DNA of 64,000 bases, from NCBI RefSeq assembly GCF_028290205.1, contig NZ_JAQGKF010000099.1, positions 10,496 to 74,495 of the forward strand, written 5' to 3'. Under the pieces are notes generated by a model, which worked only from the letters and a program-made list of their open reading frames with translations, ran no database searches and had not been told where the DNA came from. Made by a program: the position numbers and the translations under genes. Shown here in pieces: positions 5,159 through 56,484 of the stretch. Source of the DNA: Enterovirga sp. (lineage in GTDB: Bacteria; Pseudomonadota; Alphaproteobacteria; Rhizobiales; Beijerinckiaceae). Each line of letters begins with the position of its first letter. Position 1 is the first letter of the stretch.

Positions 5159-6157
5159 ATGGCGGCGCGTAAGAAGCCCCTGGTTGTGGTCACCCGCCGG
5201 TTGCCGAACGCAACCGAGACCCGAATGCGTGAACTCTTCGACGCGGAGCTGAACCTCGACGACAAGGCGATGGGGACGGCCGAGCTGGCCGACGCCGTGC
5301 GGCGCGCCGAGGTGCTGGTGCCGACCGTCACGGACGAGATCGACGCCTCCCTGCTGGCTCAGGCGGGGCCGGACCTGCGGCTGATCGCCAATTTCGGCAA
5401 CGGCGTCGACAACATCGACGTCCAGGCGGCGCTGGCCCGGGGCATCACGGTGACCAACACGCCGGGCGTGCTGACCGACGACACCGCCGACATGACCATG
5501 GCGCTGATGATGGCGGTGGCACGGCGGCTGCCCGAAGGCGCACGGGTCATTCCGCACGACGAATGGGCCGGCTGGTCGCCGACCTGGATGCTCGGCCGCC
5601 GCGTCACCGGCAAGCGGCTGGGCATTGTCGGCATGGGGCGGATCGGCCAGGCCGTCGCCAAGCGGGCGCGCGCCTTCGGCCTTTCCATCCATTACCACAA
5701 CCGCCGCCGCGTCCCCGTCGCCATCGAGGAGGAGCTCGAAGCGACCTACTGGGATTCGCTCGACCAGATGCTGGCCCGCATGGACATTGTCACCGTCCAC
5801 TGCCCGCACACGCCGGCCACCTACCATCTGCTGTCGGCCCGGCGGCTGAAGCTGCTCCGGCCGCAGGCCCTGGTGGTGAACACCGCACGCGGCGAGATCA
5901 TCGACGAGAACGCGCTCGCCCGGCTGGTCGAGTCGGGCGACATCGCCGGCGCCGGGCTCGACGTGTTCGAGCACGAGCCCTCCGTGAACCCGCGCCTCAT
6001 CAAGCTCGCCCGTCAGGGCCGGGTGGTGCTGCTGCCCCATATGGGCTCGGCGACCGAGGAGGGCCGGAACGACATGGGCGAGAAGGTCATCATGAACATC
6101 CGCACCTTCATGGACGGCCACCGGCCGCCCGATCGGGTGCTGCCGAGCATGCTCTAG
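5159..6157 (+). CDS. D-isomer 2-hydroxyacid dehydrogenase (glyoxylate/hydroxypyruvate reductase-like)
   Basis: ATG 5159 after GGAGAG; GIVGMGRIG, VNTARG, GLDVFEHEP, LPHMGSAT. Confidence 0.9.
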   Translation: MAARKKPLVVVTRRLPNATETRMRELFDAELNLDDKAMGTAELADAVRRAEVLVPTVTDEIDASLLAQAGPDLRLIANFGNGVDNIDVQAALARGITVTNTPGVLTDDTADMTMALMMAVARRLPEGARVIPHDEWAGWSPTWMLGRRVTGKRLGIVGMGRIGQAVAKRARAFGLSIHYHNRRRVPVAIEEELEATYWDSLDQMLARMDIVTVHCPHTPATYHLLSARRLKLLRPQALVVNTARGEIIDENALARLVESGDIAGAGLDVFEHEPSVNPRLIKLARQGRVVLLPHMGSATEEGRNDMGEKVIMNIRTFMDGHRPPDRVLPSML

Positions 6158-8349: not shown

Positions 8350-8625
8350 CTTGCCCAATTTCGCACGTGCCTGTGGCCGCGTGCCGGTTGGTGGGCATCC
8401 GGACAAGAGGCCGGACAGCCGCCAGGGTTTTAGGATCGATGCCGGAAGGGCGGGAGCCCCAAGGCGGCGATTCAGGTGGTAACACCGAACCCGACAACAA
8501 CCGGCAGCCGGAGGGAAAACCGGCGAACCCCGCACTCCACGGGGGACGCAGCTTGAAGCAACGACGGACGGGCTTTTTTGGTCTCGTCGGCCCTCCAAAG
8601 GCCGGCACCGAAGAGGCTTGTTTCT
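8350..8625 (+). ncRNA. speF-leader / alpha-r45-like cis-regulatory RNA (boundaries approximate)
   Basis: Long non-coding 5' region of an ornithine decarboxylase containing AGAGGCCGGACAGCCGCCAGGG, GGCAGCCGGAG...CCGGCGAACCCGCACTCC and GGGGACGCAGCTTGAAGCAACGACGGACGGGCTTTTTTGG, which match my recollection of the alphaproteobacterial speF motif. Confidence 0.7.
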
Positions 8626-8833
8626 CTTTGCCGGGCGTGCGGACGGGGCCTCCCCATCCAAACGAAGGCAGCATCTCGGGTCGAGGATCCGCGTCGTTCC
8701 GTGTCTCCAACGCACGGTCGCCGCACCGATTCGAACCCCGAAGACGCCGGGCGGGCAACCGCCTGAACTTAAATCCGAGGACAGGCGGCGAGGGCCGTCG
8801 CGCCTCGATTTGAACCTTTGTGGGAGAGCGCCG

Positions 8834-13250: not shown

Positions 13251-13327
13251 TGGCGCGCCCGAAAGGATTCGAACCTCTGACCCCCAGATTCGTAGTCTGG
13301 TGCTCTATCCAGCTGAGCTACGGGCGC
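13251..13327 (-). tRNA. tRNA-Arg (anticodon ACG)
   Basis: Reverse complement GCGCCCGTAGCTCAGCTGGATAGAGCACCAGACTACGAATCTGGGGGTCAGAGGTTCGAATCCTTTCGGGCGCGCCA folds as a canonical 77-nt cloverleaf with encoded CCA. Confidence 0.98.
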
Positions 13328-27171: not shown

Positions 27172-28260
27172 TCAGCGCCCGGTTCGGATTCTCGTCCAGA
27201 GGCGGGTCACGATCCGCTGCGTCGCCTCGTCATAGGCCGTGTTGGTGAACAGGCGCGCCATGGTGGCCTCGTCCGGAAAGATGCCGGCGTCTTTCAGAAT
27301 CTCGGGTTTCACCAGGTCCTTGGCGGCGAGATTGCCGCCCGCATAGGCCACGAAGTTGGTGTTGGCCGCCGCCACCTCCGGCCGCAGCATGTAGTCGATG
27401 AAGGCGTAGGCCTCGGCAGGGTGCTCCGCCTCAGCCGGGATCGCGAAGGCGTCGAACCACATCAGCGCCCCCTCGCGTGGGATGTGGTAGGCGATCTCGA
27501 CGCCCTTGCCGGCCTCCTCGGCGCGCTTGCGGGCCTGGATGATGTCGCCCGAAAAGCCGACCGCCACGCAGATGTCGCCGTTGGCCAGCGCGTTGATGTA
27601 TTCAGACGAGTGGAACTTGGCGATGTTGCCCCGCACCGCCATCAGCGTCTCGGCAGCGCGCCGGAGATCCGCCTCGGCCTTCGAATCCGGCTCGAGGCCG
27701 ATCGCCTTGAGAACGCCCGGCATCATGTCTTCCGGCGAATCCAGCATGTGAATGCCGCAATCCTTGAGCTTGGCGGCGATCTCGGGCTTCAGCACCACGT
27801 CCCAGGTGGCCGCAGGCATGTCGCCCAGCCGCTCCCTGACCTTGGCGACGTTCACGCCGATTCCCGTCGTGCCCCACATGTAGTCGACGGCATATTGGTT
27901 GCCGGGGTCAAACGCGGCGAGCCGGTTCACGATCTCGGGCCAAGCGTATTTCAGGTTCGGCAGCTTCGTCTTGTCGAGTTTCTGGAACACGCCCGCCTTG
28001 ATCAGCCGCTGCAGAAAGGCGCCGGACGGCACCACGATGTCATAGCCTGACTTTCCGGCCAGCAGCTTGGTCTCGACGATCTCGTTGTTGTCATAGGTGT
28101 CGTAGACGACGCGGATGCCGGTGTCCTTGGTGAAGGACTCCAGCATCTTCGGGTCGATGTAGTCCGACCAGTTGTAGACGTGGACGACGCGGTCCTGCGC
28201 CGCAGCCGCGAAGGACGAGGCGAGCAGGACGAGAGCGGCAAGGACAGGTCGAAGACGCAT
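27172..28260 (-). CDS. potF: putrescine/polyamine ABC substrate-binding protein
   Basis: YNWSDYI, LLAGKSGYD.VVP, YMWGTTG, FHSSEYINALANGD, PREGALMWFD. Confidence 0.9.
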   Translation of the reverse strand: MRLRPVLAALVLLASSFAAAAQDRVVHVYNWSDYIDPKMLESFTKDTGIRVVYDTYDNNEIVETKLLAGKSGYDIVVPSGAFLQRLIKAGVFQKLDKTKLPNLKYAWPEIVNRLAAFDPGNQYAVDYMWGTTGIGVNVAKVRERLGDMPAATWDVVLKPEIAAKLKDCGIHMLDSPEDMMPGVLKAIGLEPDSKAEADLRRAAETLMAVRGNIAKFHSSEYINALANGDICVAVGFSGDIIQARKRAEEAGKGVEIAYHIPREGALMWFDAFAIPAEAEHPAEAYAFIDYMLRPEVAAANTNFVAYAGGNLAAKDLVKPEILKDAGIFPDEATMARLFTNTAYDEATQRIVTRLWTRIRTGR

Positions 28261-28399
28261 TGCCTGAAGAACTCCGGAGCGGGTCGGCGCGAGCGCCGCG
28301 TTGGCCCGGAGAGTAGGGCGCGCGGCGGCCCGCCATCAACCCGCAGGCGCGCGCCGGACCGGAGCGCCGCGCCTGCGCTCCGGAGGTAGCACACGGGTG

Positions 28400-28427
28400 T
28401 TGACGCCGCAGCCCGGCGTGCTAGCCT
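28400..28427 (+). promoter_or_regulatory. sigma70-type promoter
   Basis: TTGACG (28400-28405), 16-nt spacer, extended -10 TG-C-TAGCCT (28419-28427). Confidence 0.6.
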
Positions 28428-28433
28428 GCGTTC

Positions 28434-28504
28434 GAGGTTGGTGGAGCTGCAATCGCGGCACTGGTATCAGCCGACCTCAAGGGGGCCTAGGCCCCCATTT
28501 TTTT
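28434..28504 (+). ncRNA. candidate small structured RNA, unassigned
   Basis: Starts 7 nt after the -10; GAGGTTGG/CCGACCTC closing stem with two internal hairpins; ends in an intrinsic terminator; antisense-oriented between two minus-strand genes. Confidence 0.65.
28481..28504 (+). terminator. Rho-independent terminator
   Basis: GGGGGC-CTAG-GCCCCC followed by ATTTTTTT. Confidence 0.85.
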
Positions 28505-28520
28505 GCCCGGAGGCCGAGGG

Positions 28521-30386
28521 TCAGCTCGGTGCCGGGTCCTTGGCGGCCAGCGCCGAGGCGATCTGGCGGGCGAAGGCCACGGGATCGCGCGGCGTGTCGC
28601 CGTCCTGGATCCGGGCGAGATCGAGCAACGTCCCGGCTGCGTCCGACACGTCCTCTCCGGATTCGACGCGGCGCGCCAGCGTCTGCACCAGCGGATGCCG
28701 GCCGTTCACCTCCAGCACCGGCGCCAGCGCGCCGAGGCCGCGCCCGGCCCGCCGCAGCAGGCGCTGCATCTGCAGGTCCGGACCGTAGCCGGCGGAGGCC
28801 AGGACCACGGCGCTCTCGACCAGCCTATCCGTCGGCCGCACGTCCGACACGTCCTCGCCGAGCGCGGTCTTGAGGGCCTCAATCAGCCCGCCCAGCTCCG
28901 GCGCAGCCTCCGCGGCTTCGCCCTCGGCTGCAAAACGCGACAGGTCGACGGCGCCTTGCGTGATGCTGCGCAGCTTCTTGCCCTCGTATTCGCCGAGATG
29001 ATCGGGCCAGAACGCGTCGACATGGTCCGAGAGAAGCAGCACCTCGAGCCCGCGCGCCCGAAACCCCTCGACCTGCGGCGAGCGGGCGAGCGCGTCGGGG
29101 TCGTCCGCGATCAGGTAGAAGATCTCGTCCTGACCGTCCTTCATGCGGCCGAGATACTCGGCGAGCGAGGTCCAGCCCTCGGCCGTGGAGGAGCGGAAGC
29201 GCAGCAGCGGCGCGATCTCGGCCCGGCGCGCGCCGTCCTCGATCAGCCCCTCCTTCACGACCGGGCCGAAATTCTCCCAGAACCCGACATAATCCTCGGC
29301 GTTCTTGGCCCGGCTGCCGAGTTCGCTCAGCACGCGGCCGGTGACGGCCTTGCGGATGCGGGACAGGGCCGGGGTCGCCTGCAGCATCTCGCGCGAGACG
29401 TTGAGGGGGAGGTCGTCGGTGTCCACCACCCCGGCCACGAAGCGCAGCCAGTTTGGCAGCAATCCGGCCTCATCGGTGATGAACATGCGCCGCACATGCA
29501 GCCTGACCCGGCTCTCGCGCTCGCCTTCGACCGCCGCGAAGGGCTTCATGCCGGGCACGAACAGCAGCGCCGTGAACTCCGTCGCGCCCTCCGCGCGCCA
29601 GTGCAGGGTCGCCCACGGCTTGTCGAAGGCGTGCGCCACATGCCGGTAGAATTCGGCATAGCCGTCTTCGTCGATTTCGCCCTTCGGCTTGCGCCAGAGC
29701 GCCGTGCCCTGATTGCCTGCCATCTCCTCCGTCCCGCCGATGACGATCGGCAGGGCGATGTGGTCGGCCCATTTGCGGATGATGTGCTGCAGCCGGGTGG
29801 GCTCCAGGAACTCCTCGGCATCCTCTTTCAGGTGCAGCACGACGTCGGTGCCGGGCTCGGCCCGGCTCCCTGGCGTCAGCGTGAAGCTGCCCTGTCCCTC
29901 GGACGCCCAGGTCCAGGCCTCGTCCGTTCCCGCCCGGCGGGACACGACCTCGACCCGGTCCGCGACCATGAAGGCGGAGTAGAAGCCGACGCCGAACTGG
30001 CCGATCAGGTTCGGGCGTTCGCCCGGGCTCGCTTCCGCGAGCGACTGGCTGAACGCGCGCGTGCCCGACCGGGCGATGGTGCCGAGGTCGCGGGTCAACT
30101 CCTCCTTGCCCATGCCGAGCCCGTCATCGGTGACGGTGAGCGTGCGGCCGGCCTTGTCGGGCACGATCCGCACCTTGGGGCTCTCCGGCATGGACAGCGC
30201 CGCGTCGGTCAGGGCCGCGAAGCGGCGCCGGTCGGTCGCGTCGGCCGCGTTGGCCACGAGTTCGCGCAGAAAGATCTCCCGGTCGGAATAGAGCGCGTGG
30301 ACGACCAGATCGAGCAACCGCCCGACCTCCGCGCCGAATTCATGCCGCTCGACCGTTCCGGTTGAGGTCTTTTCGCTGTCGCTCAC
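28521..30386 (-). CDS. htpG: molecular chaperone HtpG (Hsp90)
   Basis: GTG after AAGGAGG; [46 protein letters not shown]. Confidence 0.96.
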
Positions 30387-30512
30387 GCCGTTCCTCCTTG
30401 TCCGGCCGCGATATGCAGCCGCCGGGGACACGTTTCAACCGGGTTCGACAGTGGACGCCCGGCCTTCCGTGCGCTTACGGTCCGGCTCCCGCGGCGCCCC
30501 CGAGAGACCTCG

Positions 30513-47026: not shown

Positions 47027-48712
47027 ATGAGTTCCGTCGCCCTCGAAGCCGGCTCCGCCTGGGACGCCCGCGCGGCCGCGCCGCGCCGCCCGGCTCGCGG
47101 CCTGGGTCATGCCGTGTTTCTGTCGGCCGCGATTCTGGTCGCCGTGGCGCTGATCGCCCCCGTCGCCTCCCTGGCCGTCAGCGCCCTCCAGGGCTCGGCC
47201 GGGTTGTGGCCCCACCTCGTCGCCTATGTGCTGCCGCAGGCGCTGCGCGACACCGTGCTTCTGCTTCTCGGGGTGGGCCTCCTGGTTCTGGTGGTCGGGG
47301 TCGGCACCGCCTGGCTCGTGGCTGCGCACGATTTTCCCGGCCGCCGGCTGGTCGAATGGATGCTGGTCCTGCCGCTCGCGGTGCCGACCTACATCGTGGC
47401 CTATGCCTATCTCGACCTCCTGCATCCGGTCGGTCCGGTGCAGACGGGCCTTCGCCACCTGTTCGGGATCGCGAGCCCGCGCGACCTGCCGTTTCCGGAG
47501 GTCCGCTCCCTGCCGGTCTGCGCCCTGCTGATCGGCTTCGTGCTGTATCCCTACGTCTACCTGCCGGTCCGGGCCGTGTTCCTGCTCCAGGGTGCGGAGG
47601 TGCTGGAAGCCGCCCGCACCCTCGGGGCCGGCTCCGCCCGCACCTTCTGGCGGGTCGCCCTGCCGCTGGCCCGGCCGGGCATCGCGGTCGGAGCGAGCCT
47701 CGCCCTGCTGGAAGCCCTGAACGACATCGGGGCGTCGGAATTCCTGGGCGTGCGCACGCTCACGGTCTCGATCTATGCCACCTGGGTGAACCGGTCGGAC
47801 CTGCCCGGCGCCGCGCAGATCGCCTTGCTGCTGCTGGTGGTGGTGCTGGCGCTGCTGGCCGCGGAGGCCTGGGGCCGTCGGCAGGGCCGCTACGTGGCCG
47901 GCCGGAGGACACCGCAGAGGCGGCCGCTCTCCGGCAGCCGGGCCGGGCTCGCGCTTCTTGCCTGCGCGGCCCCGATCACGGTCGGCTTCGTGGCGCCGGC
48001 CGGCTACCTGCTGGTCGAAGCCTCCAAGCGGGTCGCCTTTGCGGGCGTGTCGGCCGGTCTCGCCCGCGAGACGCTGAACACGGTGCTGCTCTCCGCCGGC
48101 GCCACCGTCCTGACGGTCGGGCTCGGGCTCGTCCTCGCATCGGGTGCGCGGCTCTATGCCCGGCGCGTGCCGTCGCTGTGGCTGCGGGCGGCCGGATTCG
48201 GCTACGCCCTTCCGGGCACCATCCTGGCCGTGGCGCTGCTCGGCCCGCTCGCGGGCTTCGACCGGATGCTGGCCGCCGTCACGCGCGACCTGTTCGGGGT
48301 GACGCTCGGGCTGCTGGCCGGCGGCACCGCGGTGGCGCTGATCTACGCCTATACGGTGCGGTTCCTGGCGATCTCGATCGGCGCCGCCGAAGCCGGGCTG
48401 GCCAAGCTGCCGGCCTCGCAGGACGAGGCAAGCCGCGTGCTCGGGCAGGGTACGCTCGGCACGTTCCGGCTGATCCACGTGCCCTTCGCCTGGACGGCGG
48501 TGGCGAGCGGCGCGCTGCTGGTCTTTGTGGATTGCATGAAAGAGCTGCCCGCGACGCTGCTGCTGCGGCCGCTCAACGTCGAGACCCTGGCCACGCACCT
48601 GTATGGCGAAGCGGCGCGGGGCACCTACGAGGACGGCGCCGTCGCGGCGCTGATCATCGTGCTGATCGGCCTGTTGCCGCTGACGCTGCTGTCGCGCCTC
48701 GGCCCGCGCTGA
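47027..48712 (+). CDS. fbpB: Fe3+ ABC transporter permease
   Basis: Two EAA-loop halves; LYPYVYL, MKELPATLLLRP.N.ETLAT. Confidence 0.92.
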   Translation: MSSVALEAGSAWDARAAAPRRPARGLGHAVFLSAAILVAVALIAPVASLAVSALQGSAGLWPHLVAYVLPQALRDTVLLLLGVGLLVLVVGVGTAWLVAAHDFPGRRLVEWMLVLPLAVPTYIVAYAYLDLLHPVGPVQTGLRHLFGIASPRDLPFPEVRSLPVCALLIGFVLYPYVYLPVRAVFLLQGAEVLEAARTLGAGSARTFWRVALPLARPGIAVGASLALLEALNDIGASEFLGVRTLTVSIYATWVNRSDLPGAAQIALLLLVVVLALLAAEAWGRRQGRYVAGRRTPQRRPLSGSRAGLALLACAAPITVGFVAPAGYLLVEASKRVAFAGVSAGLARETLNTVLLSAGATVLTVGLGLVLASGARLYARRVPSLWLRAAGFGYALPGTILAVALLGPLAGFDRMLAAVTRDLFGVTLGLLAGGTAVALIYAYTVRFLAISIGAAEAGLAKLPASQDEASRVLGQGTLGTFRLIHVPFAWTAVASGALLVFVDCMKELPATLLLRPLNVETLATHLYGEAARGTYEDGAVAALIIVLIGLLPLTLLSRLGPR

Positions 48713-48745
48713 GACGCGGCGGGCCGCCGCAAGGCCGCCGGGGAG

Positions 48746-49027
48746 CTAGACCCGCGGGACCGGGCGGGCCGCAACCCGGGCCCGGATGGGCCGGCGCTCG
48801 ACCAGGACCAACCGGGTACCGGCCGCGATGGACACGGTGTGGGGCGGCAACTTCGGCAGGTGCGGCCGCACGTCGTCCTCGGAGACGCCCATCAGCCCGG
48901 CGGCGATTTCGATCTGCGCGTCCGGATCCGACGACAGGCCCTGCGCGGCGGCCACCGCCTCGTCGATGGTCGGATATTCGCGGCGGACGCGAGGCGGCGG
49001 AAGCACCTTCTTATGCTTCGGCTTCAT
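48746..49027 (-). CDS. small conserved-looking hypothetical protein (93 aa)
   Basis: RREYPTIDEAVAAAQGLSSD..AQIEIAAGLMG; coding-like codon usage. Confidence 0.7.
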   Translation of the reverse strand: MKPKHKKVLPPPRVRREYPTIDEAVAAAQGLSSDPDAQIEIAAGLMGVSEDDVRPHLPKLPPHTVSIAAGTRLVLVERRPIRARVAARPVPRV

Positions 49028-49051
49028 GTTCGAGGGCCCTTCCAGGACGAT

Positions 49052-49066
49052 TGCTGCAATGCAGCA
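49052..49066. promoter_or_regulatory. perfect 15-bp palindrome, PhaR/AniA-box-like
   Basis: TGCTGCA-A-TGCAGCA, 25 nt upstream of the 49027 start; contains CTGC-N3-GCAG. Confidence 0.5.
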
Positions 49067-49112
49067 TAGATGGGATTCGTTGTCGAGTTTCGCTATGGCA
49101 TCCGGCCCCACA

Positions 49113-51074
49113 TCACTCCAGCCGTTCGTCGTTGCGCTGCAAGGAGAGGAGCAGCGGGAAGAACGGGTCGGCGCCCAGGGCGCTGCGCCAGCGTTCGCCG
49201 AAGCGCCGGCGCTCGGCCTCGAAACGGGCCCGCCTCGCGCCTTCGTGACGGCGGGAGGCGGATTCGTGGTGCCGCAGCACCGCGCTCGGGCAGAGGAGGT
49301 TTCGCAGCCCCAGCCGACTCAGCCGCAGGCAGAAATCGACGTCGTTGAAATCGACCGCGAAGCTTTCGTCGAAGCCCCCCACCGCGTCGAAATGCGCCCG
49401 GGACACCGCCAGGCATGCGGCCGTGACGGCGGCCACCTCATGCGTCGCGAGGTCCCGGCCGAGATGGTCGCAGCTTCCCTCCGGCTGGTTGCGGCCGAAA
49501 TGGCCGGCATAGCCGCCCCAGCCCAGCACCACCCCGGCATGCTGCACGCGCCCGCCCGGATAGAGCAGGCGCGCCCCGACCGCGCCCACCCCGTCCCGGA
49601 CCGCGTGGCGAACGAGGTCGCGCAGCCAGAAGGGCCCGAGCACCTCCGTGTCGTTGTTGAGCAGCACCACCACGGCCGCTCGGGTCGCCGCCACGGCCCG
49701 GTTGACGATGTGGGGGAAGTTGAATTCGCCCGGCACGGCGACCACGCGGCAGTTCGGCCGCCGGCGCAACGCGTCCAGATAGTCCAGGGTCTCCGCGCTC
49801 GTGGAGCCGTTGTCGGCCACCACCACCTCGAAATCCGGATGGTCGGTGCCCTCGATCACGCTCTCCACGGCGACGCGCAGGAGGTCCAATCGGTCGCGCG
49901 TCGGGATCACGATCGCGGCCGAGTCGGACCCGCCTGAGGCGGCTCCGGTTCCGGGCGTCTGGGCGAGGCTCGGCAGGTCGCGCGCCTCGTCGCCCAGGCG
50001 GTGCACCGCCGGCCGGGGCAGATGCGCCACGCGGCCGGCGGGCAGGTGTTCGGCCGCCGCGACCAGCAGACGCCGGGCGAGGGCGGGCTCGGGCCCCTCG
50101 ATCCCGGCCGCGAGCTGCCGGGCCGTGCTGACGTCCCAGAGCTGGAGGCCGGCGATCGGCGCGCCGCCGGCGACGTAATCCGGGCTCCAGTCGGGTTCGA
50201 GCCTGACGGTCGCGAGCGCGCCGGAGGGAGCCAGGAGGGCGGCGTCCGAATAGAGCAGCGCGAGCCCGGGCGTCGCCGCCCAGGCGGCCCGCAGCGACAG
50301 CACCGTCCAGGGCGGCAGCCGGTCCCCGGGCGACAGGTGTGCGACGCAGCCCGACGGGAGGTCCGCGCTCCAGGGGCCTTGCTGCCGGCCGGCCGCGGGC
50401 CTGACCGTGACCCGGTCGTCGAGCCCCAGCCGGGCCGCTGCCGCCGTCGCCGGAGCCGCGGCGGCCGGCCCGGCCGCGACCAGCACGCGCCAGAGGGGGT
50501 CCGCCTGGCCAGCAAGGGTCTCCAACGTGGACGAGAGGGGGGCGGTCGCGCCCCCGGGCCAGTGGAGCAGGAAGGCGATCTCCGGGGCCGCCTCCGGCGC
50601 GGCCGGGCGGTCGAAGCGGTCCGGCTCGGGCGGGCGCGAGCGCCGGTCGGCAAAGGCCTGAACCCGCGACAGCGGCTCCTGCAGCAGCCCGGCCCGGACC
50701 GCGTTGACGCGTCCTCGCCGGGTGCGGACCAGCCCGGGAACGGCCTCCTTCAGAAGGGCGGCCGGGCTTCGGGCAAGCAGACGCAGCCGCATCTGCCACG
50801 GCGCCAGGCTCCGGGCCCGCTCCATCCGGAACAGGGCCGCGTCGGGCAGGTCGGCCAGGATCTCGTAGCGGACGAGCCGATCCGGCATGAGCCCGAGCCA
50901 GCGCGCCTGGCCGAACACCGCGGCCGGCATGATCCAGTCCAACGCCTTGCCGTCGGCCAGCCAGGCCCGGAACAGCGGCCGGACGGGGTGCGACGCGAAG
51001 CTCTGCGCGTAGTGCAGCTCGAGCCAGCGGCCCCGCAGCCGCTCCACGTCCGACGAGCCGGCGACGCTCAGCAT
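49113..51074 (-). CDS. glycosyltransferase family 2 (tandem domains)
   Basis: IVIPTRDR, VVADNGS, FNF..IVN, LLNNDTE, AVTAACL, FNDVDFCLRL, HHESASR. Confidence 0.9.
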   Translation of the reverse strand: MLSVAGSSDVERLRGRWLELHYAQSFASHPVRPLFRAWLADGKALDWIMPAAVFGQARWLGLMPDRLVRYEILADLPDAALFRMERARSLAPWQMRLRLLARSPAALLKEAVPGLVRTRRGRVNAVRAGLLQEPLSRVQAFADRRSRPPEPDRFDRPAAPEAAPEIAFLLHWPGGATAPLSSTLETLAGQADPLWRVLVAAGPAAAAPATAAAARLGLDDRVTVRPAAGRQQGPWSADLPSGCVAHLSPGDRLPPWTVLSLRAAWAATPGLALLYSDAALLAPSGALATVRLEPDWSPDYVAGGAPIAGLQLWDVSTARQLAAGIEGPEPALARRLLVAAAEHLPAGRVAHLPRPAVHRLGDEARDLPSLAQTPGTGAASGGSDSAAIVIPTRDRLDLLRVAVESVIEGTDHPDFEVVVADNGSTSAETLDYLDALRRRPNCRVVAVPGEFNFPHIVNRAVAATRAAVVVLLNNDTEVLGPFWLRDLVRHAVRDGVGAVGARLLYPGGRVQHAGVVLGWGGYAGHFGRNQPEGSCDHLGRDLATHEVAAVTAACLAVSRAHFDAVGGFDESFAVDFNDVDFCLRLSRLGLRNLLCPSAVLRHHESASRRHEGARRARFEAERRRFGERWRSALGADPFFPLLLSLQRNDERLE

Positions 51075-51120
51075 GCGGGCGGCACGTACCCGCCAGGGCC
51101 GGCGCCGGCCAAGGGGCCGC

Positions 51121-52164
51121 TCAGGGGTCGAGCGCCTCTTCGTCGCAGATCACCTGGCCGACCTGGGAGGCCTGCTGCTGCAAGTCGAGCGGGGCGGCAT
51201 GCCGGACGGGCGCCGCACCCTCCGCATGGCGCAGGAAGAGCCGCATGACGTGGCGCAGGCCGGCCTCGTTGATGGAGCGCAGGTTCTCGCCGAAATACCG
51301 GGCCATCGTCGAGGGGGCGGTCGCGACCTCGTAGGAGGGAAAGTAGAACACGTTCGGCCGCGCGCGGCAGACCTCGTCCGCCACGACCCGAAGCGCGGAT
51401 TTCGTGTAGCTGTTCGAAACCAGCACGTGCCGGTCCTCCACCGTGGCGATGATCGGGATGGGCGACACCGTCAGCACGACCCGGCTTGCCGGGTTCAGCT
51501 CCCGCAGCCCGTCCAGAAAGGCCAGCATGTCCTCCGTCATCGACGCCACCGTGCCGTTCACCGGCCCGTAGCGGTCCCGGTCCCATTCGCCCCCCATCAC
51601 GCCGGGCGGCACCGGCAGGGCGGCGCCATCCTGACGGTCGATCCAGCCCTCGGTGAGCCCGAAGGTGAACACCAGGGTGTCCAGGGTGCGCCAGAGCTCG
51701 CGCACGCAGGCGAGGTGAAAGTCCCGCGCCGCCGCGACCTCCTCCTCCGTCGCGAACCCGTCCGGCTCCATCGAGGGCCGGAACGGATCCACGTAGCGGC
51801 CGTCCTCGCGCCGCCACGCGACCAGAGCGGGCTTGAAGGTGCCGACGGAACGCTGGAAAAGCTGCAGGAGATGCCGGGTCGTGTAGACGTTGCCGTAGCG
51901 CGCCGAGAACCGGGTCTCCGCCTCCTGCCGGGTCCGGTCCGCCCGGGCGGGCGGCGCTTCGGTGACGTGGTAGGTGTATCCCGCCTCCTGCAGCACCCGG
52001 GCGACCTCCTGGGCGAAGCAGCTCCCGGCCGTGGCGATCTTCTCGTGCCGCGTGAGCTGAAACGCCTCGGGTCGGGTCGGGTCCAGGGCGAAGGGCGGCA
52101 CGCCGGCCACCGCCTTGCGCCAGTAGCGCTCGGCCGGTAGCGTCGCATAGGGGTGGTCCGCCAT
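51121..52164 (-). CDS. GSCFA domain-containing protein
   Basis: IATAGSCFAQ, FSARYGNVY, FTFGLTEGW, LTVSP.P, YFPSYE. Confidence 0.92.
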   Translation of the reverse strand: MADHPYATLPAERYWRKAVAGVPPFALDPTRPEAFQLTRHEKIATAGSCFAQEVARVLQEAGYTYHVTEAPPARADRTRQEAETRFSARYGNVYTTRHLLQLFQRSVGTFKPALVAWRREDGRYVDPFRPSMEPDGFATEEEVAAARDFHLACVRELWRTLDTLVFTFGLTEGWIDRQDGAALPVPPGVMGGEWDRDRYGPVNGTVASMTEDMLAFLDGLRELNPASRVVLTVSPIPIIATVEDRHVLVSNSYTKSALRVVADEVCRARPNVFYFPSYEVATAPSTMARYFGENLRSINEAGLRHVMRLFLRHAEGAAPVRHAAPLDLQQQASQVGQVICDEEALDP

Positions 52165-52285
52165 ACGTTCTCTCCACATCGCGCATTCCGCGACAGCCTC
52201 CCTCGCGAAGCGTCTTACCGGCCTCCTCGCCGGCCGGCCAGCAGCCCGATCTTCAGGCGGCGCCGCCCGCTCGCCTCATATCGCG

Positions 52286-53179
52286 GTGGTCGGGCATTGC
52301 CAGGGCTCGGCCGTGGCGCAGGCCTTGCGCGTTCTCCTGCCGGATGCGGAGGTGAGGTACCGCTCGCTCTACGGAATGCGGGACAGGCGCGCCGGTATCC
52401 AGGCCTTCCTGCGGCAGAACGCGGCGGCCGATGCCGTCTTCGCCTCCGAACTCGCGCAGGGCGACCTGCCCGAGGACGCGCGCGCCCACCTCATGCCAAC
52501 GGTCCTGTTCGCGGCTTTCCACCCCGACCTCGTCTATGTCGGCGACGCGGCAGGCCCGGCCGGCCGGCACGTGCCCTCGCCGGTGGGAAGCTACCATTCC
52601 GCGCTCGCCCTCTACGGTTTTCGGCGCGGCCTGTCGGCCGAGGACACGCTGAAGCTCTTCTGCGAGCCGGTCTACCGGCATGTCGGCTACCTGGACGCCT
52701 GGGAAGCGGCGACCGGGACGCAGCTTCGGCTGGCCCGGGAGGTGGGTTGGGATTTCGGGCCGTTGCTGGCGCGCTGGTCACGCCGCGGGGCGTTCATGCA
52801 TTCGGTCAATCACCCGCGCATGTTCGTCGCCGCCGACCTCGCCCGCGCCCTTCTCGATCGGGCCGCCATCCCGTTCGTTGATTTCGACATCGAGCCCTTT
52901 CTCCATGACGAGTTGCTCGCCCAGGGCTCCTGGCCGGTCTATCCGGAGATCGGGCGGGTCTACGGCCTCTCTGGGGGCTACAGCTTCCTGCCGCGCTCGC
53001 GCCGGGGCAGCAGGCGACCGCAGCCGATGACGCTCGGCCGGTTCGTGGCCGAGAGCTTCGCGCTCTACCGGCAGCGGCGGAGCGCCGAGCTGAGCTGCCC
53101 CCGGGTCGAGACCTGGCTCGCCGAAGCGGCCCTCCCGGGGGACCTCGGCGAACTCGCCGGCGTGCCGAACCCCCGCTAG
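52286..53179 (+). CDS. WcbI-family polysaccharide biosynthesis putative acetyltransferase (start uncertain)
   Basis: VVGHCQ, F.AFHPD, FMHSVNHP, WPVYPEI. Confidence 0.8.
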   Translation: MVGHCQGSAVAQALRVLLPDAEVRYRSLYGMRDRRAGIQAFLRQNAAADAVFASELAQGDLPEDARAHLMPTVLFAAFHPDLVYVGDAAGPAGRHVPSPVGSYHSALALYGFRRGLSAEDTLKLFCEPVYRHVGYLDAWEAATGTQLRLAREVGWDFGPLLARWSRRGAFMHSVNHPRMFVAADLARALLDRAAIPFVDFDIEPFLHDELLAQGSWPVYPEIGRVYGLSGGYSFLPRSRRGSRRPQPMTLGRFVAESFALYRQRRSAELSCPRVETWLAEAALPGDLGELAGVPNPR

Positions 53180-54429
53180 GCCATGTTGTTGCGGATCACG
53201 GCTGCGAGGCCGCACAGCACCGCCCAGCCCACGAGACCCGCCACCACCGTGCCGGCAATCATCCAGGCCCGGCGCGGATAGCGCGGCAGCTCCGCCGGAA
53301 CCGGCTTCACGAAGCTCGTCAGGTAGATCTGCTTCGACAGGCTGGCCGCGCGTGCTCGCTCCAAGGCCGAGGTGGCGCTGGTGTACTGGGCCTCCGCCAC
53401 CTGCCGTTCCAGGTTGGTGGTGGCGAGCCGGGTCATGGAGGCCGAGAGGGTCGGGCCCTCGGCCGACGCGGTGCGCGTGAGTTCGCCCTGCAACTGCTCG
53501 ATCTGGCGTTCGGCGGCCTGGATCTGCAGGCGCAGGTTGCGCATCTGCGGCGCGTCGGCCGAGATCGTGCCCTTGCTGGCGTTGTACTGCGCCTGGAGCT
53601 GCAGGAGCTGCGTCCGCACGGCGGCGAAGACCAGCCCGGCCTTGTTCGTTTCGGCGGTGGCGTCGAGCATGCCCTCCTGGTTGCGGACGACCTCCAGCGC
53701 GCCCCGCACCGCCGCGAGCCGCTTCGCCGCGAGCTCGTGCTCGCGCGTGGCGTGCTCCAGGGCTTCGCGGCGGCTGCGCTCGTTCATGTCGTTGATCAGT
53801 TGTTCGCTGGCCGCCACCACAGCGTTCGCCAGCCGCACCGCGTCGTCCGGCGTGAAGGCCCGGACCTCGAGCTCCACGATGCCGCCCGGCATCCGGATGT
53901 TGGCTGCCGACATGCGGCGCCAGTAGCGCGCGATCCGCTCGATCGGCATGTCCGGGTCCAGCCGGGAGAAGTAATCCGCCTCGGGATGGGCAAAGACCTC
54001 CTTCAGGTTCGCCGTCGCGATCAGGTGATCCACCAGAGTCCGGCTTGCCACGTAGTTGGTGACGACCTGCGTGTCCTGGATGATCTGCACGGACGGCACG
54101 CCCGTCATCGCCGTGAGGGCGTCCAGGCCTGCCGTGACGCCGCTCCGCACGGCGAAACGGGCCTCGGCCACGTATTGGTTCGAGGCCCAGAGGCCGTAAT
54201 AGACGACGGCGCAGGTGCTCGGGATCGCCACGGCCAGGAGGAAGGTCGCGATCACGAAGAGCCGGACGAACCGCTGGCCCCGCCGCGCCCGGAAGCCGTC
54301 CGAGGCGCCGCGGCGGCCGGACGAGAAGCGCAGGATGCGGGCCGCCTCCGACAGCTGGCGCGAGACGAACTGCGCCCGCTGCTGCGGCGTGAGCGGCCCG
54401 GGCGGCGTGATGATCGGTTCCGCGCTCAT
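53176..54429 (-). CDS. kpsE: capsule export inner-membrane co-polymerase KpsE/CtrB/WcbD-like
   Basis: TM + Y.AEARFAVR, V.AFTP.DA, coiled coil, P..P.YPRR + C-terminal TM. Confidence 0.85.
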   Translation of the reverse strand: MSAEPIITPPGPLTPQQRAQFVSRQLSEAARILRFSSGRRGASDGFRARRGQRFVRLFVIATFLLAVAIPSTCAVVYYGLWASNQYVAEARFAVRSGVTAGLDALTAMTGVPSVQIIQDTQVVTNYVASRTLVDHLIATANLKEVFAHPEADYFSRLDPDMPIERIARYWRRMSAANIRMPGGIVELEVRAFTPDDAVRLANAVVAASEQLINDMNERSRREALEHATREHELAAKRLAAVRGALEVVRNQEGMLDATAETNKAGLVFAAVRTQLLQLQAQYNASKGTISADAPQMRNLRLQIQAAERQIEQLQGELTRTASAEGPTLSASMTRLATTNLERQVAEAQYTSATSALERARAASLSKQIYLTSFVKPVPAELPRYPRRAWMIAGTVVAGLVGWAVLCGLAAVIRNNMA

Positions 54430-54472
54430 CGGCTTCTGCGACCCTTCCTTCGGTCCCGCCTGCAATCCGGCG

Positions 54473-55126
54473 TCACCGGTTCAGCCGGCTGTACATCTCG
54501 ACGGCCTGATCCACGTCCTCGAACATGAGAATGCGGCCATCCACCAGCACCGCCCCGCGCGTACAATACTGCTTCACCGTGGCGACCGAATGGGAGACCA
54601 CGATCAGATCGGTGTTCTCGCGGCGCCGGCGGAAGACCTCCTCGCAGCGAGCCGCGAAGCGCTCGTCGCCCACCGCCGTGAGCTCGTCGATCAGGTAGCA
54701 ATCGAACTCGATGGCCATGGACAGGCCGAAGGCCACCCGGGCGCCCATGCCGGACGAATAGGTCTTCATCGGGGCGTCCATGTACTCGCCGATCTCGGCG
54801 AAATCCTCGACGAAGCGCGAGACGCGCTGCGGGTCCTCGCCGTAGATCCGGGCCACGAAATGCAGGTTCTCGCGGGCCGACATCAGCGGGTGGAAGCCGA
54901 CCCCGAAGCCGAGCGGCCATGACACCCGGGCCGTGCGCCGCACCCGGCCGGAATTCGGCAATTCGGTTCCAGCGATGATCCTGAGCGTGGTCGATTTGCC
55001 GGCGCCGTTGACGCCGAGCAGGCCGTAGCTCCAGCCCGCCTGGAAGGTGGCCGAGACGTGGTCGAGCACAATCCGGCGCGTCCGCTCGGTCTTGTAGAAC
55101 TTGAAGACGTTCGAGAGCTGGATCAT
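54473..55126 (-). CDS. kpsT: capsular polysaccharide export ABC ATPase
   Basis: GVNGAGKST, SWPLGF, YSSGMGAR, YLIDE, VSHS. Confidence 0.92.
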   Translation of the reverse strand: MIQLSNVFKFYKTERTRRIVLDHVSATFQAGWSYGLLGVNGAGKSTTLRIIAGTELPNSGRVRRTARVSWPLGFGVGFHPLMSARENLHFVARIYGEDPQRVSRFVEDFAEIGEYMDAPMKTYSSGMGARVAFGLSMAIEFDCYLIDELTAVGDERFAARCEEVFRRRRENTDLIVVSHSVATVKQYCTRGAVLVDGRILMFEDVDQAVEMYSRLNR

Positions 55127-55434
55127 GGCTCGGTGGCGACGGCCCGTGATGCCGAGCCTGGGGCTGCCCGAACTGTCCGGGGCCCCGGCTTCGGGACGAG
55201 AGCCCCTGCCCAGCTTTCGTGGCTCTTTCAAGACGGGCCCGGCGGATCCCCGCCCGGGCCGCTGGCTTCCGGCCGGCGGAGCGCCTAGATAGCGCGCTCC
55301 CTCCGGATCGAGCCGCTTCGCCAATGATCCCGCCCATCGCTGTTTCGCGCCCGAGCCTCTCGGGCGAGCCGACTTGGCCGGGACCCGGCTCGCCGTCGGA
55401 CCGCTGACCGGCCCGGGAGGCGGTCACCCAACCC

Positions 55435-56484
55435 ATGCTGTTCAGCGTCCAAGCCGATACGGGATCTGCGATCACCGGCTACCTCGTGCCGGACAGCCAC
55501 TCGGCCCGTACCAGTGTGGTGGTGTCGAGCGACGGCGTGGAACTCCTCCGGATGGAGACGGCGGAGAGCCGCGACGCGCTTGTGCAGGCGGGGCGCCACG
55601 ATACGGGGCTGTGCGGCTTCACGGTGGACGAGGGCGTCGTGCCGGGCCTCGCGGGGCTCGCCGATGTCGAACTCCGGGAGGCCGAAAGCGGCATCCTGAT
55701 CTACCGCCGCTGCCCGCCCGAGGCCGTTCTCGAAAAGAAGCTGTTCCGGCTCGAGACCAACCTGTTGCCGCTGGCCAAGCTCGACCGGGCCATCCGGCCG
55801 GCCTTCCGGTTCCACTATCCCAGCATCGACCGGCACGGCCTCGAAACCACGCAGCAGATCTTCCTGCTCGAGAACCACGGCTCGCTCTATGCTAGCGGCC
55901 GCGTGACGCTCCGGTCCTATGAGGGCTACCTCGAGAAGGGCTATGCCTCGATCGCTCTGATTCAGGAGCCCTTCGACGAACTGGCCGAGCGCATTCTTGT
56001 GCTGCGGCTCATCGGGCAGGGGTTCAGCAGCTTCCTGGGGCCGCGGGACGCTTCGCTATTCGAGACCGCTGTGGCCCTCGCGACCGAGCTTCCGATCGAT
56101 GGGAGCCCCAAGGACATGCGCCGCGCCCTGCGGGGCATGCCGGAAAGTGCCGCCAACGCCCTGTCCAACCCGCTTGCCCGGCAGCTCACCACCCGGTCCC
56201 CCGGGGAGCAGCTGACCAGGACAGCCGTCAGCGCGAGCCTGACGGCGCTCGCCTCCTTCGAGCTGATTGGGCTGCGTGACCGCGCCGACGCTTTCGTCGA
56301 GACCCTGGCCGACATGCTCGCGATCGAGACGGACGCCCTGCCGGCCCTCGAGCCGATCGGGGCCGTGAAGCAGCTCGGTCAGCTGCTTCGGCAATGCCCG
56401 CCCGCCGAACTCCTGCTGGAACACGACCTCGCGTTGTATGAGCAGGTGCGAGGCGCCTTCAAAAAGTCCGGAATCGAGCCGTAG
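55435..56484 (+). CDS. capsule-locus hypothetical protein (possible degenerate sulfotransferase fold in C-terminal half)
   Basis: 349-aa ORF whose stop directly abuts the second kpsE; weak motifs IALIQEP..ELAER and SFELIG. Confidence 0.7.
   Translation: MLFSVQADTGSAITGYLVPDSHSARTSVVVSSDGVELLRMETAESRDALVQAGRHDTGLCGFTVDEGVVPGLAGLADVELREAESGILIYRRCPPEAVLEKKLFRLETNLLPLAKLDRAIRPAFRFHYPSIDRHGLETTQQIFLLENHGSLYASGRVTLRSYEGYLEKGYASIALIQEPFDELAERILVLRLIGQGFSSFLGPRDASLFETAVALATELPIDGSPKDMRRALRGMPESAANALSNPLARQLTTRSPGEQLTRTAVSASLTALASFELIGLRDRADAFVETLADMLAIETDALPALEPIGAVKQLGQLLRQCPPAELLLEHDLALYEQVRGAFKKSGIEP

Follow-up and report, generated by a model that had tools for sequence, protein, structure and literature searches.

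A candidate 71-nucleotide small RNA gene of Enterovirga with an invariant, putatively base-pairing block and a possible lipoprotein mRNA target

Lineage-specific small RNAs (sRNAs) are common, and sRNAs with their own promoter and terminator are also borne by prophages or as morons, as with DicF, IpeX and AgvB/AsxR of E. coli prophages. MicL of E. coli, a sigma-E-dependent sRNA processed from within cutC, reportedly represses the small abundant lipoprotein Lpp by pairing in the lpp coding region. Here we describe a predicted 71-nucleotide (nt) RNA element at positions 28434-28504 (plus strand) of a 64,000-nt stretch of DNA from Enterovirga sp. (contig NZ_JAQGKF010000099.1, positions 10,496 to 74,495; hereafter the window). 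The source genome (G000) is a metagenome-assembled genome of the genus, and the element lies between potF and htpG. On comparison of its four known copies, the element is very probably a real, independently transcribed non-coding RNA gene, and we put at roughly 0.55 the probability of the whole statement that it is an sRNA gene acting by base pairing through an invariant block of its sequence.

Like MicL, the element is short, ends in an intrinsic terminator, belongs to an Hfq-encoding host and has as its best and possibly only target, here a predicted one, the mRNA of a tiny conserved envelope lipoprotein. The two share no sequence or structural homology, and the Enterovirga RNA differs in having its own predicted promoter and a predicted target site that lies about 45 nt before the AUG, right at the 5' terminus of the leader. 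With the alphaproteobacterial sRNAs of Rfam (AbcR/ar15, ar14, ar45, ar7, ar9, ar35, BjrC and MmgR) it has in common its class, its size class, a stand-alone intergenic position and an intrinsic terminator, and with AbcR a location beside ABC-transporter genes; in contrast to these sRNAs, it is matched by none of their models even at E ≤ 10, is limited to 3 of 15 Enterovirga species and is without single-stranded CU-rich anti-Shine-Dalgarno loops, its proposed seed being the 3' strand of a hairpin together with a bulge. In two of the three species the module resembles prophage sRNAs in that it is self-contained, runs on the opposite strand and has tail-fibre and endolysin genes on either side, the classical moron position, whereas the surrounding cluster looks domesticated, the G000 copies lie among housekeeping genes and no homologue was found in phage or viral collections. 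Met2624 is a Methylobacteriaceae-specific sRNA of about 300 nt that was found in Methylorubrum and Methylobacterium only (bioRxiv 10.1101/2022.01.24.477521). It resembles our element in being lineage-restricted, in belonging to the same family-level group and in its limited covariation; the two are unrelated, the Enterovirga element being 71 nt long and found in Enterovirga only.

The comparison set consisted of 15 genomes of the genus Enterovirga and of family genomes, of which individual searches covered between 59 and about 400. When the module was compared with 60 relatives by BLAST, a single match was returned, in G004; it is 77% identical, and its genomic surroundings differ. A search with a covariance model (CM) built from the window and G004 sequences (R1) added two further copies, one in G002 and a second one in G000 on contig C126, which brought the total to four copies in three species. 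All alignment, pairing and seed statistics given below rest on these four sequences. With a second model built from all four copies (R2), the copies scored 68-85 bits, the window copy 80.4 bits (80-91 bits across CM searches), and nothing else among the 15 genus and 161 family genomes exceeded 28 bits. The three further copies are:

G004:C5:53223-53284: G004 copy, CM score 85.2 bits
G002:C127:11284-11346: G002 copy, CM score 70.2 bits
G000:C126:2048-2106: second G000 copy (C126 copy), CM score 67.8 bits

Weak CM matches in the genus and family (L015-L022, 19-28 bits) were rejected as coding sequence or as sites without terminators. An exact search for a 19-nt core in 185,579 species genomes found G004 only, and the matches of a 24-mer, allowed up to three mismatches, in 400 family genomes were at the control rate. 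The core pattern gave 0 matches in metagenome and viral collections; relaxed core patterns gave 59 viral and 6 metagenome matches, all of which were rejected by CM or on inspection, and BLAST against phage and plasmid collections gave no match. Homology between copies at non-orthologous loci is limited to a module of about 90 base pairs (bp), from the -10 box to the terminator, and the flanks of the module have neither terminal repeats nor homology to one another. Since HtpG proteins of these species are only 71-79% identical, neutral intergenic DNA should no longer align between them.

CTGGTATCA also stands in a non-coding stretch of G000 contig C50 (minus strand near 5311, L106), with a GACCCGC-GTC-GCGGGTC hairpin before it and a short hairpin and a T-run after it. 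The 9-mer has no further intergenic occurrence, and because the R2 search of G000 did not report C50 we judge it to be probably a chance match.

The features of the window copy, including its proposed promoter, are as follows:

28400-28405, plus strand: -35-like hexamer TTGACG, read from the sequence; not conserved in the other copies
28418-28427, plus strand: extended -10 region GTGCTAGCCT, within which GTGCTA is invariant in 4/4 aligned copies
28434-28504, plus strand: predicted 71-nt primary transcript with a predicted +1, based on fold z score, CM scores and the homologues in G004, G002 and C126
28434-28441, plus strand: 5' strand of helix P1, GAGGUUGG (GAGGTTGG as DNA), pairing with 28471-28478; 8/8 pairs kept in all copies
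28442-28444, plus strand: 5' strand of helix P1b, UGG here and CAG in the other three copies, pairing with CUG at 28461-28463
28446-28459, plus strand: hairpin P2, GCUGC-AAUC-GCGGC, with a variable loop, from folds and alignment
28454-28469, plus strand: invariant 16-nt block CGCGGCACUGGUAUCA, the proposed seed, spanning the 3' strands of P2 and P1b and the bulge
28464-28470, plus strand: unpaired 3' bulge GUAUCAG, the proposed toehold, from minimum free energy (MFE) folds of the G004, G002 and C126 copies and from the consensus fold
28471-28478, plus strand: 3' strand of P1, CCGACCUC (CCGACCTC as DNA), pairing with 28434-28441
28481-28496 (stem) to 28504 (end), plus strand: intrinsic terminator GGGGGC-CUAG-GCCCCC followed by A and U7, from a terminator scan

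A preliminary description of this DNA, drawn from its letters, had proposed a self-contained, unannotated plus-strand sRNA gene of about 71 nt outside known families, folded as an outer helix that encloses two hairpins in a three-way junction. The gene itself stood up to comparison, with four copies in three species, conserved pairing, a terminator in every copy and no Rfam match, while the three-way junction and the proposed target loops did not. The P1 pairing, of GAGGTTGG with CCGACCTC in the window, was found in all copies, and the GCTGC-AATC-GCGGC hairpin is present in the window. The letters of the second proposed hairpin, CTG-GTAT-CAG (28461-28470), are also there, but the hairpin is absent from the MFE fold and is not conserved in the homologues. 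As the 3' arm reads CAA in G004 and P1b uses the CUG, neither this hairpin nor the junction is supported: the CUG at 28461-28463 pairs on its 5' side with UGG or CAG, leaving GUAUCAN as a 3' bulge. We therefore model the RNA as a single long hairpin, P1-P1b-P2, with a 3' bulge.

The body shared by all four copies comprises P1 of 8-9 bp at or next to the predicted 5' end, P1b of 3 bp (YRG paired with CUG in each copy), P2 of 4-5 bp with loops AAUC, CCUC, UCGC or UUCGC, and 6-7 nt of GUAUCA(N) unpaired on the 3' side between P1b and P1; a linker of 2-6 nt joins this long hairpin to the terminator. Each copy has its own plus-strand terminator, with a stem sequence that is different in every copy and a plus-strand U-tract of 5-8 nt. 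In the window, the terminator stem proposed earlier (GGGGGC-CTAG-GCCCCC, 28481-28504 with its U-tract) was recovered and is followed by ATTTTTTT (A and T7), which reaches 28504; the hairpin was called on the plus strand only (1 site, versus 0.4 expected per kb in shuffles).

In the model-fitted alignment, standard pairs occupied 57/57 paired cells, against 26-52% when the partners were slid by 1-3 columns. Seven further pair types were seen, one of them a double compensatory change in P1 (UGG/CCG to CAG/CUG in the C126 copy), and the changes in P1b were U-G to C-G and G-U to A-U. The G004, G002 and C126 copies fold independently into the P1-P1b-P2 architecture with z = -4.1 to -5.5, and the 71-nt RNA of the window has an MFE of -36.9 kcal/mol with z = -4.0 (relative to dinucleotide shuffles), compared with only -25.3 kcal/mol and z = -1.5 for its reverse complement. 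Seven of the 57 paired cells are G-U and would be A-C mismatches if read on the other strand. The RNA was assigned to the plus strand because of these G-U pairs, the U-tracts and the folding energy.

Upstream of the predicted transcript, TTGACG and TAGCCT (28422-28427) are separated by a 16-nt spacer, with a TG at 28419-28420, just as had been reported. A sigma-70 scan called no promoter for the window copy because TAGCCT agrees with TATAAT at only 3/6 positions, and the -35 matches of the other three copies are weak (GGGACA, GTGACG and none). GTGCTA (TGn-TA, extended -10) occurs in 4/4 copies, 12-14 nt upstream of the first base of P1. The suggestion of an own promoter finds support in the invariant GTGCTA at its fixed distance to P1 but not in TTGACG, which is not conserved, nor in the sigma-70 scan, which is silent. 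Read from the window sequence alone, the putative promoter would be weak; conservation of GTGCTA in all four copies argues for it. Between this promoter and the potF start codon lies a perfect 9-bp inverted repeat, CCGGAGCGC-N7-GCGCTCCGG (window 28359-28383), which may be a regulator site or a hairpin of the potF leader.

Rfam 15 gave no match to the window element at gathering thresholds; at E ≤ 10 only two spurious matches appeared (15.3 and 7.2 bits, against thresholds of 32 and 100), and the homologous loci (L002, L011 and L014) were without a match as well. ARAGORN found 0 tRNA or tmRNA genes in 28300-28600. The Rfam covariance models agree with the earlier remark that the element is not SRP, 6S, tmRNA, AbcR or MmgR. 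Coding of a small peptide was rejected, as the indels between copies are not multiples of 3. An antisense RNA of a type I toxin-antitoxin system was likewise rejected, there being no hydrophobic open reading frame (ORF): the sole opposite-strand ORF, 28336-28461 (41 amino acids, translated by eye), is hydrophilic and Arg/Pro-rich, and the neighbouring small ORFs differ between G004 and G002. An Hfq homologue with 58% identity to E. coli Hfq is encoded on contig C113, and the genome thus combines hfq with a 3' hairpin and a U-tail of at least 5-6 U, as expected of an Hfq-dependent sRNA. By prediction, the element resembles a typical stand-alone Hfq-type sRNA in its mode of action. Its sequence and distribution point to a new sRNA family of a familiar general kind, apparently young and confined to one clade of Enterovirga (Rhizobiales).

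The base-pairing proposal starts from the invariant block, CGCGGCRCUGGUAUCA, in which 4/4 copies agree at every position but one; that position is A in two of them and G in the other two. Changes in P1b and P2 fall on the 5' strand only, with the 3' strand and the bulge invariant; this is the pattern expected of a block that is constrained beyond its own hairpin. The AATC and GTAT loops had been proposed as target-binding; since the AAUC loop is variable, we transfer that role, as a proposal, to the block. A duplex scan of G000 with the block returned mostly GC-rich coding matches of the GGUGCCGGUGCCGC type. It also returned a leader site on contig C196, 5'-GAUACCAGUGCUGCG-3', which would pair contiguously with 15/16 invariant nt (14 Watson-Crick pairs and one G-U; predicted energy -29.6 kcal/mol). 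The variable seed position faces a U in this site, so all four sRNAs can pair with it. The site lies about 45 nt upstream of the ATG of a 40-codon gene. Its product, a putative lipoprotein (MKKIFAIAAVAGVVLSAGAC followed by IGKGKAPPPAPVPTAIITKG), begins with a signal peptide of lipoprotein type and is without a match in Pfam or NCBIfam.

The lipoprotein locus is conserved in five Enterovirga species, including all three sRNA-bearing genomes. Its leader box, CGATACCAGTG(C/A)TGCGTACCA, is identical in G000, G004, G002 and G008 and has one C-to-A change in G009; the remainder of the leader is variable. A conserved -10 element, CCTATAGC, lies about 8 nt before the start of the box, which would thus coincide with the mRNA 5' end, and the leader is predicted to be nearly unstructured. 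Full-length cofolding of the window copy with the leader gave a gain of -11.5 kcal/mol, which was equalled by 1/1500 random translation-initiation regions (top 0.1%). We tentatively regard the first ~20 nt of the lipoprotein mRNA as the best candidate target, an assignment that is modelled and leans to the doubtful side. Neither the leader box nor the lipoprotein gene was found outside the genus. An origin of the sRNA by inverted duplication of the target leader was rejected, as the similarity stops at the 15-mer. The binding protein at the C126 locus was rejected as a local target (rank 1184/4663).

The gene is monocistronic (G000 C196:4843-5078, plus strand; L105 540-780; L107 1545-1780), and two of its non-coding elements are conserved in the five species, namely a promoter box (CTGTGGCTTTTTCGCACTAGAG...CCTATAGC) and the near-invariant 21-nt 5'-terminal leader box. 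The latter contains a TACCA-N8-TACCA direct repeat and has no match in Rfam; as it persists in two species without the sRNA, it must bind some other ligand.

Several results weigh against an sRNA gene that pairs through the block with this leader. On the side of the gene, the -10 hexamer would count as weak in E. coli and no -35 is conserved; covariation is not significant with four sequences, 97-119 of 500 shuffles reaching the observed values. On the side of the target, the C126 copy gains only -7.1 kcal/mol on cofolding with the lipoprotein leader, chance alone should supply about one complement to the 11-nt Watson-Crick core per genome, and about 3-5 other translation-initiation regions of the genome should score equally well. 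Co-variation of sRNA and target is not visible, both being invariant, and potF, as the local target, was rejected at rank 3321/4663 with no complementarity. Finally, G008 and G009 keep the leader box without a detectable sRNA, and no diverged sRNA with the same seed was found in either; the box must therefore have another constraint besides the sRNA.

The two genes that flank the window copy were both confirmed by family matches to lie on the minus strand, as first described:

27172-28260, minus strand: PotF-like periplasmic binding protein, an orphan and the divergent neighbour (NF007962, E = 1e-127)
28521-30431, minus strand: htpG, the convergent neighbour (NF003555, E = 2e-199)

The terminator stem stands 24 nt from the htpG stop codon, and the end of the element (28504) 16 nt from it. 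The stem is a perfect palindrome, with just UU after it on the minus strand, and may stop htpG transcription too. The earlier view that a plus-strand terminator here has no gene to serve is thus right as to the strand of the flanking genes but leaves aside that it may also serve htpG. Adjacency of potF and htpG was unique to G000 among the genomes compared, which made the proposed comparison of potF-htpG intergenic regions impossible, and other Enterovirga htpG genes have unrelated 3' regions. The surroundings of the window copy are of housekeeping type (a sulfite-oxidase-like enzyme, cytochrome c, a Crp/Fnr regulator and an amidohydrolase). The C126 copy is convergent with the end of an operon that encodes an SDR protein, two permeases, a PotD-type binding protein, an ATPase and hydantoinase A/B, its U-tract ending about 25 nt from the hydantoinase B stop codon. 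Downstream genes are thus convergent for both G000 copies, and both copies adjoin PotD/PotF-type ABC-transporter loci.

The modules of G004 and G002 are flanked by a tail-fibre gene (Peptidase_S74 and PHROG tail-fibre families) and an endolysin gene (Amidase_2 and PG_binding_1) and run on the opposite strand; the nearest gene convergent with the G004 copy is the tail-fibre gene, which ends about 270 nt away. G009 has the same two genes about 80 bp apart without the module, and the syntenic phage-like region of G000 (C175) is without both endolysin and module. A moron position (a self-contained unit between phage late genes, absent from related elements) therefore describes the G004 and G002 copies and neither of the G000 copies. 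Because the tail-fibre-like gene is present in 13/15 genus genomes with core-like divergence, the cluster looks domesticated, like a gene transfer agent (GTA), and not like a mobile prophage. On sequence grounds, the module appears to be a small portable transcription unit, present at three unrelated kinds of locus.

The phage-like cluster was inspected at L008 (G004 NZ_CAXTAZ010000005.1, 48001-56000), L102 (G000 C175:1-8000) and L100 (G009). It includes the tail fibre with its Peptidase_S74 chaperone domain, the endolysin and several ORFs without an assigned function, and its synteny is kept in 13/15 genomes; in G004 and G002 the endolysin carries a PG_binding_1 domain in addition, and in G009 it is shorter. 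In G004, an 84-codon ORF (MASKTTFVVQGFELKRKRL...; L002 1601-1855, plus strand) begins 11 nt past the sRNA terminator. It has no counterpart after the G002 copy, and Pfam gave no match on the overlapping frame.

Two other readings accept a real RNA and differ as to what it does. Its partner might be a protein, for which it would be a decoy, sponge or cofactor, with block and bulge as the recognition site and the leader match a coincidence. A conserved asymmetric internal loop between helices is a common form of protein-binding site, and here the block is largely sequestered in P1b and P2, with only 6-7 nt unpaired; the retention of the leader box in G008 and G009 and the once-per-genome expectation for the 11-mer core point the same way. 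Yet the complementarity covers 15/16 invariant nt, its sole variable position faces a U, the pairing site is the most conserved, unstructured mRNA 5' end, and no candidate partner gene was found linked to any of the four copies, all of which makes protein binding unlikely. Alternatively, the RNA could pair in trans with other targets, either mRNAs of ABC-transporter binding proteins, as AbcR does, or coding sites of the GGUGCCGGUGCCGC type. The initiation regions of potF and of the C126 binding protein rank no better than given above, despite the position of both G000 copies beside PotD/PotF-type loci. Several coding-region sites have hybridisation energies as low as or lower than C196 when G-U pairs are allowed, but GC-rich coding matches are expected in any genome of 70% GC, and these make no Watson-Crick use of the AU-rich GGUAUC part; we consider such targets improbable.

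The remaining explanations dispense with a trans-acting RNA. If the module were a DNA-level or mobile-element remnant, such as the moron scar of a tail-fibre/endolysin cluster, an operator or a recombination site, its place between phage-type tail-fibre and endolysin genes in G004 and G002, its absence between the same genes in G009 and its occurrence at three unrelated kinds of locus would be readily understood. The G-U wobbles and compensatory changes, by contrast, fit an RNA from one strand only, every copy has retained a promoter box together with a terminator that looks functional and differs in sequence, and there are no terminal repeats, flanking homology or matches in viral, phage or plasmid collections; a remnant is accordingly very improbable. 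Comparably small is the chance that the element is in essence the terminator or insulator of htpG (and, in C126, of the hydantoinase operon), any plus-strand RNA mattering only because, in cis-antisense, it would keep htpG transcription from running on into potF. The perfect palindrome that starts 24 nt past the htpG stop, and the C126 U-tract about 25 nt from the hydantoinase B stop, would suit it. Against it stand the bare UU that follows the hairpin on the minus strand, the scan calls on the plus strand only, the unrelated 3' regions of other Enterovirga htpG genes and, in G004, a convergent tail-fibre gene that ends about 270 nt off, so that the terminator is not shared; moreover, it is the upstream hairpin and seed that are conserved, the terminator sequence being different in every copy.

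Under the preferred reading, an sRNA that pairs through its invariant block, an RNA of about 71 nt would be transcribed from the extended -10 promoter and the block would serve as a trans base-pairing seed. Pairing could nucleate between the GUAUCA bulge, as a toehold, and the 5'-terminal GAUAC of the lipoprotein mRNA, and the duplex could then grow to 15 bp by opening P1b and P2, possibly with the assistance of Hfq (C113). Repression might follow from a block of the unstructured CA-rich leader or from duplex-directed decay. In this model repression is somewhat favoured over stabilisation of the 5' end, and the position of the site is equally compatible with 5'-end protection. The full scenario is more speculative, and we hold it to be doubtful as a whole: a recently born, clade-specific sRNA, its hairpin-3'-strand seed exposed by a bulge toehold, would pair with an older lipoprotein leader box as an analogue of MicL/Lpp of unrelated architecture, and the 90-bp module would have moved as a unit, including into the GTA-like lysis region.

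Elsewhere in the window, Rfam identified an alphaproteobacterial ar45 sRNA at 8353-8577 (plus strand, 44.5 bits, above the gathering score), directly followed in tandem by a speF leader at 8585-8735 (plus strand, 44.7 bits, above the gathering score), and an ordinary tRNA gene at 13254-13327 (minus strand, 68.3 bits).

No general principle is changed by these observations, and all that goes beyond sequence comparison is prediction. If confirmed, the element would be a new sRNA family in an alphaproteobacterial genus that has received little study. It would also make an uncommonly clean case, with an RNA of 71 nt, an invariant seed of 16 nt and a single strongly predicted target. Its nested distribution (five species with the target, of which three have the sRNA) would bear on the recruitment of a new sRNA to a pre-existing element of mRNA control, and the presence of the module at three unrelated kinds of locus, of which one derives from phage, on how sRNA genes spread within genomes.

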